From: a plasmid | Strand: one strand, 5' to 3' | Assembly (NCBI RefSeq): GCF_054482525.1 | Contig: NZ_JBTHVG010000008.1 | Length of the DNA stretch: 5,891 nt | In this document: positions 762 to 4,721 of the stretch, piece by piece | Numbering within the stretch: the first letter of the stretch is position 1 | How the letters are laid out: the number at the start of each line of letters is the position of its first letter | Translations under genes and position numbers: made by a program | The notes under the pieces: model-generated | What the model saw: the letters and a program-made list of their open reading frames with translations, nothing else | Told to the model about the DNA's origin: nothing | Database searches by the model: none

Positions 762-966
762 AACCATGAAAAATGGCAGGTTCATTGGATTAAGGCGGAC
801 TAATGTGCTCTGTGCCATCTGGTTGCATAGGTATTCATACGGTTAAAATTTATCAGGCGCGATCGTGGCAGTTTTTCGGGTGGTTTGTTGCCATTTTTAC
901 CTGTCTGCTGCCGTGATCGCGCTGAACGCGTTTTAGCGGTACGTACAAACTGTTGTTATGTTAAAT
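760..966. other. cer-like Xer (XerC/XerD) multimer-resolution site: accessory sequences plus core at 938..966
   Basis: The stretch 846-946 (gcgatcgtggcagtttttcgggtggtttgttgccatttttacctgtctgctgccgtgatcgcgctgaacgcgttttagcggtacgtacaa) closely matches ColE1 cer as I remember it. Core: XerC-arm-like GGTACGTACAA (938-948), central region actgttg (949-955), XerD-arm-like TTATGTTAAAT (956-966). Each arm is one mismatch from the cer arms GGTGCGTACAA and TTATGGTAAAT. Confidence 0.7.
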
Positions 967-988
967 ACTGATGGGCTTTCCTGCTTGA

Positions 989-1873
989 TTATCCGAAGAG
1001 CAATCCCCAAACACTTTTAGCTACAGAAACAATGGCTTTCTTGGCGACTTTAGCCACTGACGCTATTGGTTTAGGTAGTACGGTGTCTATTATATCATCA
1101 ATAGCTCTATCTACGGTGTCTGCGAACCCGTCCTTTGCCGTTTCTACAATTTCTTTTGTTTTTATTTCGTCTTTTACTTGATGCACCACTCCGCTCTGTG
1201 CTTCCTTTGGGAGCGATCTTACTATTGCCTCCACTAACCTTGAAATGTTATAACCTTCATTCGCAGATACAGATATAACGGGATGTTTGGTAAAACCGAA
1301 TCGTTCTATTAAGTATTCTTCCTTTTTTCTAATATTTATTTGTTGTGAGGGTGATGGTTGGTGTTTTTCTTCATCCCATTCGCGGAATGGCTCAATCTTG
1401 TCGACTTGGTTTAAAACAAACAACACTTTTTCATCACCACCAACTGGTTTTAAAACATTTTTATAAAAGTGCTCATCAGCTGAAAATGCTCGATCATCAC
1501 CTTTAACAACCCAAAGCACCAGATCTAATTCTGGGAGAAGATTTTTATACAACTCTTCATATTCTATATCTTTAGCTTCATTTTCACCTACACCTGGTAT
1601 ATCTATTATTTTAATTGTTCTATCACCAAATGAAATTATTAATTCCTGAACCTTTCTCGTGCATGCTTCTACATCACTCACTGCACATACATTACCTTTA
1701 AAGATAGAATTACATAGGCTGGATTTACCAGCGCCGGTTTTACCCATAATCCCTATTACTGGTTCGTAATTAATAACATTTCTAATTTTGTTATAGACAG
1801 ACTTGCGAATCTCTTTAGGTAGAACATCCACAGCTTCTTTGATTAATTTTATACCTTGCGTATTGTTTTCCAT
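989..1873 (-). CDS. P-loop GTPase of the YfjP/YkfA/YeeP (MMR_HSR1-like) family with C-terminal amphipathic tail, 294 aa from the MENNTQ start
   Basis: The track ORF is 989..1960 on the minus strand. I prefer the ATG at 1873 (MENNTQGIK...): it has a GAGGA about 11 nt upstream and avoids overlap with the upstream gene, which ends at 1909. Motifs read in the translation: G1 GIMGKTGAGKSS, G3 DIPG, G4 NQVD, G5 SVSA. Conserved blocks ELDLVLW, DEHFY and QPSPSQQ resemble the E. coli CP4-prophage GTPases YkfA/YfjP/YeeP as I recall them. The C-terminus (PKPIASVAKVAKKAIVSVAKSVWGLLFG) looks amphipathic. Confidence 0.8.
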   Translation of the reverse strand: MENNTQGIKLIKEAVDVLPKEIRKSVYNKIRNVINYEPVIGIMGKTGAGKSSLCNSIFKGNVCAVSDVEACTRKVQELIISFGDRTIKIIDIPGVGENEAKDIEYEELYKNLLPELDLVLWVVKGDDRAFSADEHFYKNVLKPVGGDEKVLFVLNQVDKIEPFREWDEEKHQPSPSQQINIRKKEEYLIERFGFTKHPVISVSANEGYNISRLVEAIVRSLPKEAQSGVVHQVKDEIKTKEIVETAKDGFADTVDRAIDDIIDTVLPKPIASVAKVAKKAIVSVAKSVWGLLFG

Positions 1874-1908
1874 AGTTACTATTTTCCTCATTTTGTTGTT
1901 CATATGAA

Positions 1909-2343
1909 TTAACGGAAGCTTGTTTTTCTTTCTTCTTTTTCTTCCCCGCATACAGAACATTTGTAATGGCGATAGGTATCAGAACTCCCACTAAGATACC
2001 AATTGTGTCTTTTACCATGAACTCGCTCTGTAAAACATCTCACGCATCTTTCTTTCACATTGCAATAATCATCGACTGCAATTTCAACAAATCTTTCATG
2101 CCTTTCGCCTTCTTGTTCAGCGCCACAGTCGATACACTTTTTTACAGTTGTGCACTTGAAATCGTATTTATAACTTTCCTCTCCGTATTTATGCTGTTCT
2201 TTTTGTATAGTGCGATTGCAGTCAGGGCATAGTTTAGAATATTTACAAGTCTCACCATCAATAAGCTTATAGTTTCCTCCGTGTATACCTACCCCACACT
2301 TAGCCTTGATTGCTGCATTTTTTATGCTATCCCAAAAGCCCAT
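1909..2343 (-). CDS. Cysteine-rich small protein (144 aa) with three tandem CX5CX2C motifs plus a terminal CX2C; putative multi-zinc-ribbon protein
   Basis: ATG at 2343 (minus strand) is preceded by GGGAGA at about 7 nt spacing. The translation has 12 Cys arranged as CKYSKLCPDC, CTTVKKCIDC, CNVKERCVRC and CSVC, spaced about 30 aa apart. It ends 35 nt before the GTPase start, so the two are probably co-transcribed. I recognise no family. Confidence 0.7.
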   Translation of the reverse strand: MGFWDSIKNAAIKAKCGVGIHGGNYKLIDGETCKYSKLCPDCNRTIQKEQHKYGEESYKYDFKCTTVKKCIDCGAEQEGERHERFVEIAVDDYCNVKERCVRCFTERVHGKRHNWYLSGSSDTYRHYKCSVCGEEKEERKTSFR

Positions 2344-2389
2344 GGAAAAATCTCCCTACGATTAGTTGATATAAGTTGAACAATTCATC

Positions 2390-2440
2390 GACATGATTAT
2401 ACACGTATAGTGTGTGGATATATAAAAATGAGTATGGATT
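2390..2440 (-). promoter_or_regulatory. Candidate sigma70 promoter for the Cys-rich/GTPase gene pair (perfect -10 TATAAT on the minus strand at 2396..2401)
   Basis: The minus strand reads ...acgtgTATAATcatgtcg... about 50 nt upstream of the 2343 start codon. The -35 region is AT-rich and weak (TATATA-like). This is an inferred position within a 227-bp AT-rich intergenic gap (2344..2570). Confidence 0.3.
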
Positions 2441-2570
2441 TATGCTCTGTATAATGTTTTTGTTATGTTAAATATAGCGCTGAAAAAGTGGGGGCACTGG
2501 ATAAACTTCGTGTTTTTCCCGCAAAGATAGTATTGGAAAGTCATTGTCTAATTCATCCAAGATAAATATT

Positions 2571-3383
2571 TTACGAATTTGTGAGTTTGCTTGAGATTTT
2601 TATATATTCAGCCTTTATTAACTCATTGCCATATTTTTTCTCGAGTCTTTTAACAATGAAATGACCTCGAGCCATATCTTGATAATAGTCGGTAAACATT
2701 GTGTTTAATGTGGCTCCAGTTAGTGCTCCAATAACGGGAACGACTTGAGCTGCCATTTTTTCCGTAATAACTATACCAAATCTTGTTGCAACTTTTTCTA
2801 TTAACGAAGCTAACCATTTTCCTGTTTGTACTGAAGATGCGTTTTTGACAGCAATGTTAGAAATTTCTTTGGATAAATCTTGTACGATCTCGGCAGTCAA
2901 ACTTCTTGTTGCATAGTATGCAGTATTAGCTGCATCATCGTCATCAGATGGTCCTCCCAAGGAAAACACCTCTAAGCAGGCCAGTTTGGTATCAATATTA
3001 TCTAGCTCAAAACCTTCACTTCTTGCTATGTCAGCAATTGAACGAAGCATAATTGTCGTTGAAACCGGTAACTCAATTGCTAATGCAGAAAAGCCAAAAG
3101 CGCCACCAATGGCTCCAGATACGGCCGCAAAGAATTTATTTGTCTTAGTTGATGCTATTCGGTTAGGTTCATTGTCTAGACTCCATAAGGCCGCATCAGC
3201 AGCTTTGTGGAGCGATTTTTCTACTAGACTATAAATTTGCTCTTCTGCCCCTTTGGGAAGTTTACTCATTAAGTAATCTATTGGGGTTCCAACTAATTGG
3301 GTTAATGTTTCAGTAATTGTATCTTGTTCTAATAATTCTACGGCCCTTTCTAAAGCCCGCAGATCTCCTTCTTCAAGATGCAT
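2571..3383 (-). CDS. EcsC-family-like protein (putative), 270 aa
   Basis: Long minus-strand ORF. Its ATG at 3383 is preceded by AAAGGA at about 9 nt. It has Gly/Ala-rich hydrophobic segments (AAVSGAIGGAFGFSALAIELPVSTTIMLRSIADIARSEGF and VVPVIGALTGATLNTMFTDYY) that I associate with EcsC-family proteins. That assignment is from memory and unverified. Confidence 0.6.
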   Translation of the reverse strand: MHLEEGDLRALERAVELLEQDTITETLTQLVGTPIDYLMSKLPKGAEEQIYSLVEKSLHKAADAALWSLDNEPNRIASTKTNKFFAAVSGAIGGAFGFSALAIELPVSTTIMLRSIADIARSEGFELDNIDTKLACLEVFSLGGPSDDDDAANTAYYATRSLTAEIVQDLSKEISNIAVKNASSVQTGKWLASLIEKVATRFGIVITEKMAAQVVPVIGALTGATLNTMFTDYYQDMARGHFIVKRLEKKYGNELIKAEYIKISSKLTNS

Positions 3384-3536
3384 ATAATGAATCCTTTATG
3401 AATCAATCGATAGTCTACTTTTGTAAGTGATTCGTCTTGGGAGCTTACCTTGAGCGAGTTCAGTGATTCAATAGGCGAGATGCCGACATCATTGTTGTCT
3501 GTGAAGCAGGAGTGATGAAAAGATCAAAGGATCCTC

Positions 3537-3565
3537 TTGTGATCCTTTTTTTCTGCGCGTAATCT
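3537..3565 (+). promoter_or_regulatory. RNAII (primer) promoter: -35 TTGTGA (3537..3542), 17-bp spacer, -10 TAATCT (3560..3565)
   Basis: Positional and sequence equivalent of the pBR322/pMB1 RNAII promoter (TTGAGA - 17 bp - TAATCT). The transcription start is predicted at G3573. Confidence 0.7.
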
Positions 3566-3574
3566 GCTGCCTGT

Positions 3575-3682
3575 AAACAAAAAAACCACCGCTACCAACG
3601 GTGGTTTGTTTGCCGGATCAAGAGCTACCAACTCTTTTTCCGAAGGTAACTGGCTTGGTGGAGCACAGATACCAAATACTGT
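3575..3682 (-). ncRNA. RNAI antisense copy-number control RNA (about 108 nt)
   Basis: The minus strand beginning at 3682 reads acagtatttggtatctg..., the RNAI 5' end. It is complementary to the 5' end of RNAII. Its promoter (-35 TTGAAG, -10 CTACACT) lies at 3689..3718 on the minus strand. Confidence 0.85.
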
Positions 3683-3688
3683 CCTTCT

Positions 3689-3718
3689 AGTGTAGCCGCA
3701 GTTAGGCCACCACTTCAA
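3689..3718 (-). promoter_or_regulatory. RNAI promoter (-35 TTGAAG, -10 CTACACT on minus strand)
   Basis: The reverse complement of 3689..3718 reads ttgaagtggtggcctaactgcggctacact, matching the pBR322 RNAI promoter apart from one base in the spacer. Confidence 0.65.
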
Positions 3719-4119
3719 GAACTCTTAATATCTCAATCCACCTTGTCCAGTTACCAGTGGCTGCTGCCAGTGGCGCTTTGTCGTGTCTTACCGGGTTGGA
3801 CTCAAGACGATAGTTACCGGATAAGGCGCAGCGGTCGGGCTGAACGGGGGGTTCGTGCACACAGCCCAGCTTGGAGCGAACGACCTACACCGGGCCGAGA
3901 TACCAACAGCGTGAGCTATGAGAAAGCGCCACGCTTCCCGAAGGGAGAAAGGCGGACAGGTATCCGGTAAACGGCAGGGTCGGAACAGGAGAGCGCACGA
4001 GGGAGCCACCAGGGGGAAACGCCTGGTATCTTTATAGTCCTGTCGGGTTTCGCCACCTCTGACTTGAGCGTCGATTTTTGTGATGCTCGTCAGGGGGGCG
4101 GAGCCTATGGAAAAACGCC

Positions 4120-4140
4120 AGCGGCGCGGCCTTTCGTTGC
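4120..4140 (+). other. ColE1-type origin of replication (RNAII-to-DNA transition)
   Basis: The sequence aaaaacgccagcggcgcggcctttcgttgcc corresponds to the pBR322 ori switch region (aaaaacgccagcaacgcggcctttttacgg). Confidence 0.65.
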
Positions 4141-4369
4141 CCTTTGCCTTTTTGCTCACATGTTCTTTCCGGCCTTATCCCCTGATTCTGTGGATAACCG
4201 TATTACCGCCTTTGAGTGAGCCGGCACCGCTCGCCGCAGCCGAACGACCGAGCGTAGCGAGTCAGTGAGCGAGGAAGCGGAAGAGCGCCGGAACGTGCAT
4301 TTTCTCCTTACGCATCTGTGCGGCATTTCACACCGCATATAGCGCTCTTTTCTTACAATCTGCACTGAT

Positions 4370-4440
4370 GCCGCATGGTTAAGCCAGTATACACTCCGCT
4401 ATCGCTACGTGACTGGGTCATGGCTGCGCCCCGACACCCG
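4370..4440 (-). other. oriT / bom (basis of mobility) with nic region near 4381..4385
   Basis: The reverse complement of 4376..4440 reads cgggtgtcggggcgcagccatgacccagtcacgtagcgatagcggagtgtatactggcttaacc, the pBR322 bom sequence, which contains the nick site in the TGGCTTA context. It lies between the origin and rom, as in pBR322. Confidence 0.65.
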
Positions 4441-4529
4441 CTAAAACCTGCTGACGCGCCCTGACGGGCTTGTCTGCTCCCGACATCCGCTCACAGGCAA
4501 GCTGTGACCGTCTCCGGGAGCTACATGTG

Positions 4530-4721
4530 TCAGAGGTTTTCACCGTCATCCCCGAAGCGTGAGAGGCAGCTGCGGTAAAGCTCATCGGCGTGCTCGTGAA
4601 GCGATTCACAGATGTCTGCCTGTTCATCTGCGTCCAGTTCGTTGAGCTTCTCCAGCAGCGTTAATGTCTGGCTTCTGATAAAGCGGGCCATGTTAAGGGC
4701 GGTTTTTTCCTGTTTAGTCAC
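4530..4721 (-). CDS. rom: Rom/Rop, RNA-one modulator (63 aa)
   Basis: The translation MTKQEKTALNMARFIRSQTLTLLEKLNELDADEQADICESLHEHADELYRSCLSRFGDDGENL differs from pBR322 Rop, as I recall it, at only two residues. It has a GTG start with GGAGG upstream and is convergent with RNAII, as in pBR322. Confidence 0.9.
   Translation of the reverse strand: MTKQEKTALNMARFIRSQTLTLLEKLNELDADEQADICESLHEHADELYRSCLSRFGDDGENL

Follow-up and report, generated by a model that had tools for sequence, protein, structure and literature searches.

Results

An EcsC-family gene on a small ColE1-type plasmid

The plasmid DNA analysed in this work (5,891 nucleotides; hereafter the window) carries three contiguous, co-oriented cargo genes on its minus strand, coding for an EcsC-like protein, a Cys-rich protein and a GTPase. 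These genes, together with the signals around them, are located as follows:

989..1873, minus strand: small GTPase of the YkfA/YeeP/YfjP family, 294 aa when read from the start that RefSeq gives (1873); outside the EcsC unit
1909..2343, minus strand: Cys-rich orphan gene, 144 aa with 12 Cys and four CxxC; outside the EcsC unit
2344..2570, minus strand: AT-rich spacer between EcsC and the Cys-rich gene, 227 bp, 32% GC
2396..2401, minus strand: perfect -10 hexamer TATAAT, 53 bp upstream of the Cys-rich ATG
2571..3383, minus strand: EcsC-family gene, 270 aa, ATG start, identical to WP_000549944.1 (ORF list, Pfam, RefSeq)
3384..3576, minus strand: EcsC upstream region, 193 bp from the RNAI 3′ end to the ATG (promoter scans, alignment)
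3392..3396, minus strand: RBS AAGGA, 8 nt upstream of the EcsC ATG (read from the sequence)
3577..3680, minus strand: RNAI antisense replication regulator (Rfam RF00106, 68.6 bits), upstream of EcsC and sharing its strand
3607-3583, minus strand: RNAI terminator (terminator scan)

The cargo region that was queried (850-3520, 2671 bp) is 100% identical to Klebsiella pneumoniae pMV-v4-SK2-O-b (NZ_CP085865.1, 5891 bp), so the window appears to be that whole plasmid, with position x of the window corresponding to position 4192-x of NZ_CP085865.1. The plasmid is a mobilisable ColE1-type replicon, in whose RefSeq annotation the genes rop, mobC and mbeB/mbeD are found. Its backbone has a GC content of 51.5-55.8% and its cargo genes one of 36.5-38.4%, and RNAI is the only structured RNA that an Rfam search returned in the window, with none in the gap between the EcsC and Cys-rich genes.

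A sequence-only reading of this DNA had placed an EcsC-family gene at 2571-3383, and the Pfam search confirms it: residues 18-243 of the protein align to positions 31-236 of the 240 in PF12787 (E=1.8e-31, 110 bits), and the identical protein in RefSeq, WP_000549944.1, bears the name ‘EcsC family protein’. The family was founded on EcsC of the Bacillus subtilis ecsABC locus, and at E<=1e-3 its PF12787-like members make up 1777 clusters (50% identity). All residues invariant in an alignment of 116 EcsC sequences (G90, G94, R160, N227, H241 and F242), as well as those conserved in at least 90% of them (G97, E104, P106, C136, Y156, G219 and G223), are present in the plasmid protein, and so are the family motifs, i.e., the GxxxGxxG helix, ELP, R160, N227 and H241-F242. 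The acidic patch GGPSDDDDAAN and the Gly/Ala-rich hydrophobic stretches that had been pointed out in the same reading could be located at residues 143-153, and at residues ~84-122 and ~209-232, respectively. The Kyte-Doolittle 19-residue maximum is 1.74 in the first of these stretches (peak at residues 85-103) and 1.44 in the second, with one EcsC segment only reaching the usual transmembrane threshold. The AF2 model of the protein (pLDDT 89.2, pTM 0.89) is an all-helical, compact globular bundle with no solved homologue, and the best 50 Foldseek matches in AFDB50 are essentially all EcsC-family or legacy ‘Peptidase’-named homologues, with TM between 0.79 and 0.94. No NCBIfam model matches either EcsC or the Cys-rich protein, and no phage homologues of EcsC were found by tblastn in 50,697 phage records or in PHROGs.

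Pairwise dN/dS of EcsC is 0.13-0.25 across eight homologues and 0.22 between two plasmid lineages; in a ninth comparison, with the Raoultella homologue, dS was saturated. It is practically certain that the minus strand of 2571-3383 carries a functional gene, that its product belongs to the EcsC family (PF12787), and that RefSeq already contains this protein. Because the exact protein is found there under the very name proposed for it, the finding itself is already known, and the reading made from the sequence is a correct re-identification of an ordinary, catalogued gene.

Upstream of the gene, nucleotide homology to the chromosomal EcsC homologues begins at 3388-3397, that is to say, it takes in the ORF and the RBS only. 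The 193-bp upstream region is ~93% conserved, with the RBS kept, in the 3.27-kb plasmids that carry EcsC only (described below), and promoter scans gave no convincing sigma-70 promoter in it. On the 3′ side, the segment 2460-2580 folds no better than its shuffles (z=-0.33), and the terminator scan gave no intrinsic terminator after EcsC, for which reason some read-through co-transcription with the Cys-rich/GTPase pair is possible. The lack of a recognisable promoter upstream, and the fact that EcsC is disrupted on one plasmid, are what could be expected if the gene had no function at present and were a passenger, neutral or in decay. Such a passenger, however, should hardly keep an intact ORF in 34 complete E. 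coli genomes, a conserved RBS, and a dN/dS of 0.22 even between two plasmid lineages, and we regard this explanation as highly improbable.

The spacer and a probable Xer-bounded cassette

The AT-rich gap had been measured correctly in the sequence-only reading: exactly 227 bp separate the stop of EcsC (2571) from the ATG of the Cys-rich gene (2343). Nucleotides 2400-2600 of the window match nine plasmids only, the spacer being confined to this plasmid lineage, and its small ORFs, looked at as candidate antitoxin genes, are all chance-like and 21-34 aa long. The strong -10 element reported in the gap does exist, as the perfect TATAAT at 2396-2401, but it does not amount to evidence of a strong complete promoter: the best -35 candidates match the consensus at 3-4 of six positions, at a spacing of 17 or 19 bp, which is weak, and the consensus promoter scan listed zero minus-strand promoters. 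The gap also contains the second of two XerCD-type sites:

938..966, plus strand: XerCD-type site 1, cer-like, GGTACGTACAA-ACTGTTG-TTATGTTAAAT; XerC arm with one mismatch, XerD arm perfect
2444..2473, plus strand: XerCD-type site 2, GCTCTGTATAA-TGTTTTTG-TTATGTTAAAT; XerC arm with four mismatches, XerD arm identical to the dif arm

The two sites, each composed of an XerC arm, a spacer of 6-8 bp and an XerD arm, are in direct orientation and flank the Cys-rich/GTPase pair. They have an exact 15-mer in common (953-967 and 2460-2474), and an exact repeat of at least 15 nt arises in 4 of 300 Markov simulations; the XerD arm itself is matched twice in the window, against 0.15 matches expected. Site 1 has homologues in related ColE1 backbones, namely their cer-like sites, one of which, for example, reads GGTGCGTACAA-TTACAGGG-TTATGTTAAAT. 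Since site 2 lies inside the gap, the gap is a junction between modules, and since the TATAAT falls between that site and the Cys-rich gene, the -10 belongs to the downstream cassette. The independence of the EcsC unit, which had been suggested on account of this element, is therefore upheld by modularity (the Xer site, and the sole-cargo plasmids and break at 2577 described below) and mainly not by the -10. In small plasmids, Xer sites are an established route for cointegration and gene capture (PMC6764390; Tran 2012, as cited in PMC8683028). The most likely origin of the Cys-rich/GTPase cassette would be a Xer-mediated cointegration at the cer-like site of the plasmid and its resolution there, with the -10 element arriving as part of the cassette.

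EcsC without the Cys-rich/GTPase pair

The full trio of genes occurs in nine near-identical plasmids only, eight of which measure 5.88-5.89 kb and the ninth 12.9 kb. About 11 further plasmids, of 3272-3282 bp, have a 91%-identical EcsC gene as their sole cargo beside ori and rop. Their homology to the window is restricted to 2577-4721 and breaks off at 2577, within the last EcsC codons, where the shared ending ...KLTN is followed by S and the stop in the window, and by QNQRKHLNSN and the stop in the small plasmids. Some derivatives of these 3.27-kb plasmids have gained OXA-48, others a CMY/sugE insertion by which EcsC is disrupted; in pEcoUTI1c, EcsC is interrupted by an insertion and the plasmid is still retained.

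Whether EcsC might be functionally linked to the pair had been left undecided in the sequence-only reading, and such a link fails by the refuting condition set there, the neighbourhood of EcsC in other genomes speaking against it. A species-level scan (one genome per species) queried with 21 closer sequences gave 80 loci, at 44-76% identity, and in none of these does a relative of the GTPase or of the Cys-rich protein lie within 8 kb on either side of the EcsC homologue (tblastn, E<=1e-3). Neighbouring genes were called with a codon-model caller, which missed EcsC in 13 of the 80 loci, and the immediate neighbours at 32 non-redundant loci belong to heterogeneous Pfams (EAL/GAF, GNAT, RibD_C, Barstar, histidine kinase, helicases and others). 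Relatives of the GTPase, for their part, are found in CP4-like islands, where they adjoin WYL-domain genes and have no adjacent EcsC, the best relative on a plasmid being 65% identical. Those of the Cys-rich protein number 13 only and, where their context is available, are solitary in variable regions of Mixta, Yersinia and Leclercia.

In some islands of E. coli, a type I R-M system lies between the EcsC homologue and a GTPase of the YkfA family, the two genes being about 7.7 kb apart. The EcsC homologue of Pelistega is situated between dynamin-like proteins, one of which is LeoA-like. EcsC was also considered as a relative of DUF697/YcjF, the membrane partner of the YcjX GTPase, and this candidate was rejected, with an hhalign probability of 1% and a motif of 16 columns only.

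One three-gene operon system, with the GTPase as sensor or switch, for example, the Cys-rich protein as zinc-finger adaptor and EcsC as membrane effector, would account for the common orientation, contiguity and low GC of the genes (36.5-38.4%) and for the lack of a terminator between EcsC and the pair. The GTPase of the E. coli islands and the dynamin-like neighbours in Pelistega could be read in the same sense, as could the occurrence of JukA in fusion with a Ras-like GTPase or in pairs with EcsC-like genes. It does not account for EcsC being alone on the 3.27-kb plasmids, the restriction of the trio to nine near-identical plasmids, the lack of either partner at all 80 homologue loci, the occurrence of GTPase and Cys-rich relatives with no EcsC beside them, or the Xer-site junction that separates EcsC from the pair, and a system of this kind is very unlikely. 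It is, by contrast, very probable that the pair constitutes a separate predicted cassette of 1507 bp between direct XerCD-type repeats, and that EcsC is an autonomous single-gene module on a ColE1 replicon and no partner of the pair.

Close homologues and their surroundings

The close EcsC clade, at 70-80% identity, includes homologues from E. coli, Morganella, Vibrio, Aeromonas and a Raoultella plasmid, and is common to Enterobacterales, Vibrionales, Aeromonadales and Alteromonadales. Within E. coli its distribution is rare and patchy, with a member in 47 of 5426 complete genomes (36 of the matching places are on plasmids and 18 on chromosomes). The gene is solitary in every one of its settings, that on the Raoultella plasmid included, and in E. 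coli, Vibrio, Aeromonas and Morganella it is set off from its neighbours by spacers of roughly 80-630 bp. At the E. coli site, orphan cdiA-CT/cdiI arrays lie on one side of EcsC and a variable slot on the other, which holds type I R-M genes, with or without DarT-Macro, or RADAR-like RdrA/RdrB genes. The Morganella homologue is near a PrrC-containing type I R-M system; that of Vibrio parahaemolyticus is ~5 kb from GajA (Gabija; E=7e-200) and follows a PDC-S15 FRG protein at a distance of ~1.2 kb that takes in two small genes; that of the Raoultella plasmid adjoins HEC-05 (DUF262) and TerY-C/PP2C/kinase genes; and that of Aeromonas merely follows the trp operon. The close chromosomal homologues are adjacent to, and not inside, the type I R-M systems and RADAR-like genes, and on the plasmid no defence system surrounds the gene. 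The defence-rich settings of the close clade hint at a role in conflict or defence.

The position of the E. coli and Morganella chromosomal homologues directly after the orphan cdiA-CT/cdiI arrays suggests another role, in which EcsC would be an orphan immunity-like protein that shields its carrier from toxins that target the membrane, pore-forming colicins or CDI toxins for instance. ColE1-family plasmids have historically carried bacteriocin and immunity genes (PMC8683028), which would suit this role, as would the hydrophobic helices of EcsC. No toxin gene is paired with EcsC on the plasmids, however, CDI genes are absent from the Vibrio, Aeromonas and Raoultella contexts, and ~450 bp separate the EcsC homologue from the CDI arrays where these are present. 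We also know of no colicin or CdiI immunity protein that EcsC resembles in size and fold, and altogether hold toxin protection to be unlikely.

In PADLOC, the plasmid EcsC matches PDC-S29 (38 bits, E=2.7e-10) and, more weakly, PDC-S30 (E=3e-4). PDC systems are candidates for phage defence put forward on the grounds of guilt by embedding (bioRxiv 10.1101/2024.01.29.577857). In a control, ten diverse EcsC-family proteins all matched PDC-S29, with 20-58 bits, and a Stenotrophomonas homologue that is apparently core scored above the plasmid protein, with 57.6 bits. As every EcsC member tested is matched, the match restates family membership and does not discriminate, and it was rejected as specific evidence of defence. 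On EcsC function on plasmids or in defence, the literature gave passing mentions only: EcsC-like genes share putative operons with JukA, a sensor of jumbo phages, whose operons with alternative effectors include none shown to need a partner gene, and an EcsC-like gene is predicted to be up-regulated by CASP-sigma at a type III-E CRISPR locus.

Further away in the family, the immediate neighbours at the 32 non-redundant, more distant loci rarely match defence models, and about 35 Stenotrophomonas species keep an EcsC homologue at an apparently conserved locus, which points to a role in the cell, and not in immunity, for at least part of the family. EcsC could accordingly be a housekeeping-type accessory of the envelope or membrane, acting as in ecsABC or in membrane/stress homeostasis, whose presence on the plasmid brings a modest physiological benefit or is simple hitch-hiking. 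The large size and wide spread of the family would agree with this, and so would the mostly metabolic or regulatory neighbours of the distant homologues and the non-specific nature of the PDC-S29 match. On the other hand, EcsA and EcsB genes are absent both from the plasmid and from the vicinity of the close homologues, and the close clade is rare, transferred between orders, and found in variable islands where defence and CDI genes are its neighbours. It is also hard to explain why a housekeeping gene should be the sole selected cargo, under purifying selection, of a 3.27-kb high-copy plasmid. This role is the main rival of a conflict function at the membrane, and we give the two about equal weight, considering each possible without calling it probable.

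Discussion

The results of this work can be brought together in a single explanation with three tiers, to which we give a probability of roughly 40%: a functional EcsC-family gene, which forms an autonomous module on a small ColE1-type plasmid, and whose product is a membrane-acting conflict factor. The tiers differ in how firmly they stand, the first two having been dealt with above. The third, taken by itself, sees EcsC as a stand-alone, abortive-infection-like conflict protein at the inner membrane, and is a tentative proposal: the analysis has established who the gene's relatives are, that it is under selection, what class of fold it has, that it is modular and what it lies beside in genomes, and the action on the membrane, the trigger and the defence phenotype are all inferred.

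In the mechanism that we propose, the EcsC protein would be cytoplasmic, acidic, compact and all-helical, and its two conserved glycine-zipper-like helices (G90, G94 and G97 in one, G219-x3-G223 in the other) might allow it to associate with the inner membrane or insert into it. Insertion, considering that one segment reaches the hydropathy threshold and that the AF2 model is a compact globular bundle, would be conjecture. The protein would act alone as a conflict factor, most probably as an anti-phage protein of the abortive-infection type that perturbs the membrane when triggered. Its expression, given that no clear promoter lies upstream, would stay low, the protein being normally quiescent, and may depend on read-through from RNAI.

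A further, and more doubtful, step would be to extend this to the whole plasmid clade of EcsC, as a single-gene, membrane-acting immunity or conflict factor, anti-phage or anti-competitor, carried as the sole cargo of small ColE1 plasmids. If it were true, this would be the first function assigned to the EcsC family outside the Firmicutes, and would make of EcsC a new effector fold without a solved homologue. Independently of its function, the 3.27-kb high-copy plasmid, with EcsC as sole selected cargo, is a minimal natural construct for a family of 1777 clusters. The PADLOC PDC-S29 call, being generic for the EcsC family, should not be taken as evidence of defence. As a by-product, the plasmid offers a probable example of the capture of non-resistance cargo by ColE1 plasmids through Xer sites.

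Comparison with known systems

The nearest relatives of the plasmid gene are the chromosomal genes for ‘EcsC family protein’ of E. coli, Vibrio, Aeromonas and Morganella (277-287 aa, e.g., WP_040084984.1), with which it is collinear at 73-80% identity and which are solitary as well. The plasmid copies differ from these in lacking a loop segment of 5-10 residues after residue 184, and in their flanks. With B. subtilis EcsC, the plasmid protein has in common a full-length domain match, the family-invariant residues and an all-helical fold, which is shared with other members of the family. Unlike in the B. subtilis ecsABC locus, however, there are no ecsA/ecsB ABC-transporter genes on the plasmid or beside the close homologues, and the plasmid clade is Gram-negative, horizontally mobile and monocistronic.

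The likeness to PDC-S29 and PDC-S30 consists of a weak HMM similarity and of the location of close EcsC homologues, likewise, beside type I R-M systems. In contrast to the PDC-S29 class, the plasmid EcsC is not embedded in a defence system, and its match is at the level of the family only.

The Cys-rich/GTPase cassette resembles the Xer modules of ColE-type qnrB19 plasmids and the pdif modules of Acinetobacter, in which discrete cargo is likewise flanked by two XerC/XerD-type sites, and it resembles Xer cointegrates in that one of its two sites is the cer-like site of the backbone. It departs from the known modules in its cargo, which is a GTPase and a zinc-finger-like orphan instead of a resistance gene, and in its predicted sites, which are direct here and of alternating orientation there. 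The GTPase itself is 44-46% identical, over 257-259 residues, to YkfA/YeeP/YfjP of CP4-type integrative elements, with an MMR_HSR1 G domain, but follows the Cys-rich orphan on the plasmid, whereas its CP4-type relatives follow a WYL-domain gene.

Cassette and replication region of the plasmid

The two genes downstream of EcsC occupy a 1507-bp segment flanked by two XerCD sites, which have an exact 15-mer in common (TTGTTATGTTAAATA).

938-966 and 2444-2473, plus strand: XerCD (cer/dif-like) sites, direct repeats
989-1960, minus strand: longest ORF of the GTPase gene (323 aa, start at 1960), overlapping the Cys-rich gene
1909-2343, minus strand: Cys-rich orphan, 144 aa

Because these direct repeats bracket the GTPase and Cys-rich genes, the arrangement suggests that a non-resistance cassette was captured by the ColE1 plasmid via Xer. 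RefSeq places the start of the GTPase at 1873, which gives a protein of 294 aa. A GAGGA ribosome-binding site goes with that start, and instead of overlapping the Cys-rich gene the ORF is then 35 bp away from it, so 1873 rather than 1960 is likely to be the true start. This GTPase, a member of the YkfA/YeeP/YfjP family, has a hydrophobic tail at its end (...VAKSVWGLLFG); a WYL-domain gene usually lies beside its relatives.

The Cys-rich orphan found no match in Pfam, NCBIfam, PHROG or PADLOC. Three units, each about 30 aa long, stand in tandem in it and share the pattern C-x5-C-x2-C-x8/9-H (C33/C39/C42/H51, C64/C70/C73/H82 and C94/C100/C103/H113); a terminal CxxC follows. The protein resembles a triple zinc knuckle. 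It has 13 relatives, and those whose context could be read are solitary genes. Examples lie in the variable region between mutS and rpoS of Mixta (mutS-rpoS) and next to SMC_N/MComp1/CTD4 conflict genes on an island in Yersinia.

Upstream of EcsC lies the replication region, including RNAI, the antisense replication regulator.

3384-3680, minus strand: stretch from RNAI to EcsC
3702-3860, minus strand: 'replication initiation protein' WP_071529495.1 (52 aa), a RefSeq annotation within the RNAII/ori region

ColE1 replication requires no Rep protein, and WP_071529495.1 is therefore probably an annotation artefact. EcsC and RNAI share a strand, with 193 bp between the RNAI terminator and the EcsC gene downstream. 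No sigma-70 promoter belonging to EcsC itself is recognisable; its expression may be driven by RNAI read-through or by a non-canonical promoter.

EcsC homologues in other contexts

ColE1 plasmids of about 3.27 kb with EcsC as sole cargo have become platforms for resistance genes (L004, NZ_CP049849.1; L031, NZ_CP195445.1): in one derivative OXA-48 flanked by IS1 adjoins an intact EcsC, and in one EcsC is split by a sugE-blc-CMY-136/ISKpn26 insertion.

On E. coli chromosomes the homologue stands at the boundary that separates cdiA-CT/cdiI orphan arrays from a swap-in defence slot. This slot is occupied by type I R-M, either plain or with DarT-Macro embedded in it, or by RdrA/RdrB-like genes. Past the slot comes a YeeP-like GTPase. 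In some islands an Ag43-type autotransporter follows it, and another island has a dynamin-family gene there.

In Stenotrophomonas (L034-L102) a homologue of 51-57% identity is present in about 35 species genomes and looks like a core gene of the genus. Of the loci that allowed gene calling, most have it downstream of a gene on its own strand that encodes about 190-210 aa.

L083 6243-13050: Pelistega suis locus, EcsC homologue between two P-loop proteins

Here the homologue is spaced 66 bp and 18 bp from its neighbours. In the neighbour set that includes this locus, Pfam matches two proteins to Dynamin_N, likely these two flanking ones, and the upstream one matches LeoA in PADLOC. The locus is a possible EcsC-dynamin operon.
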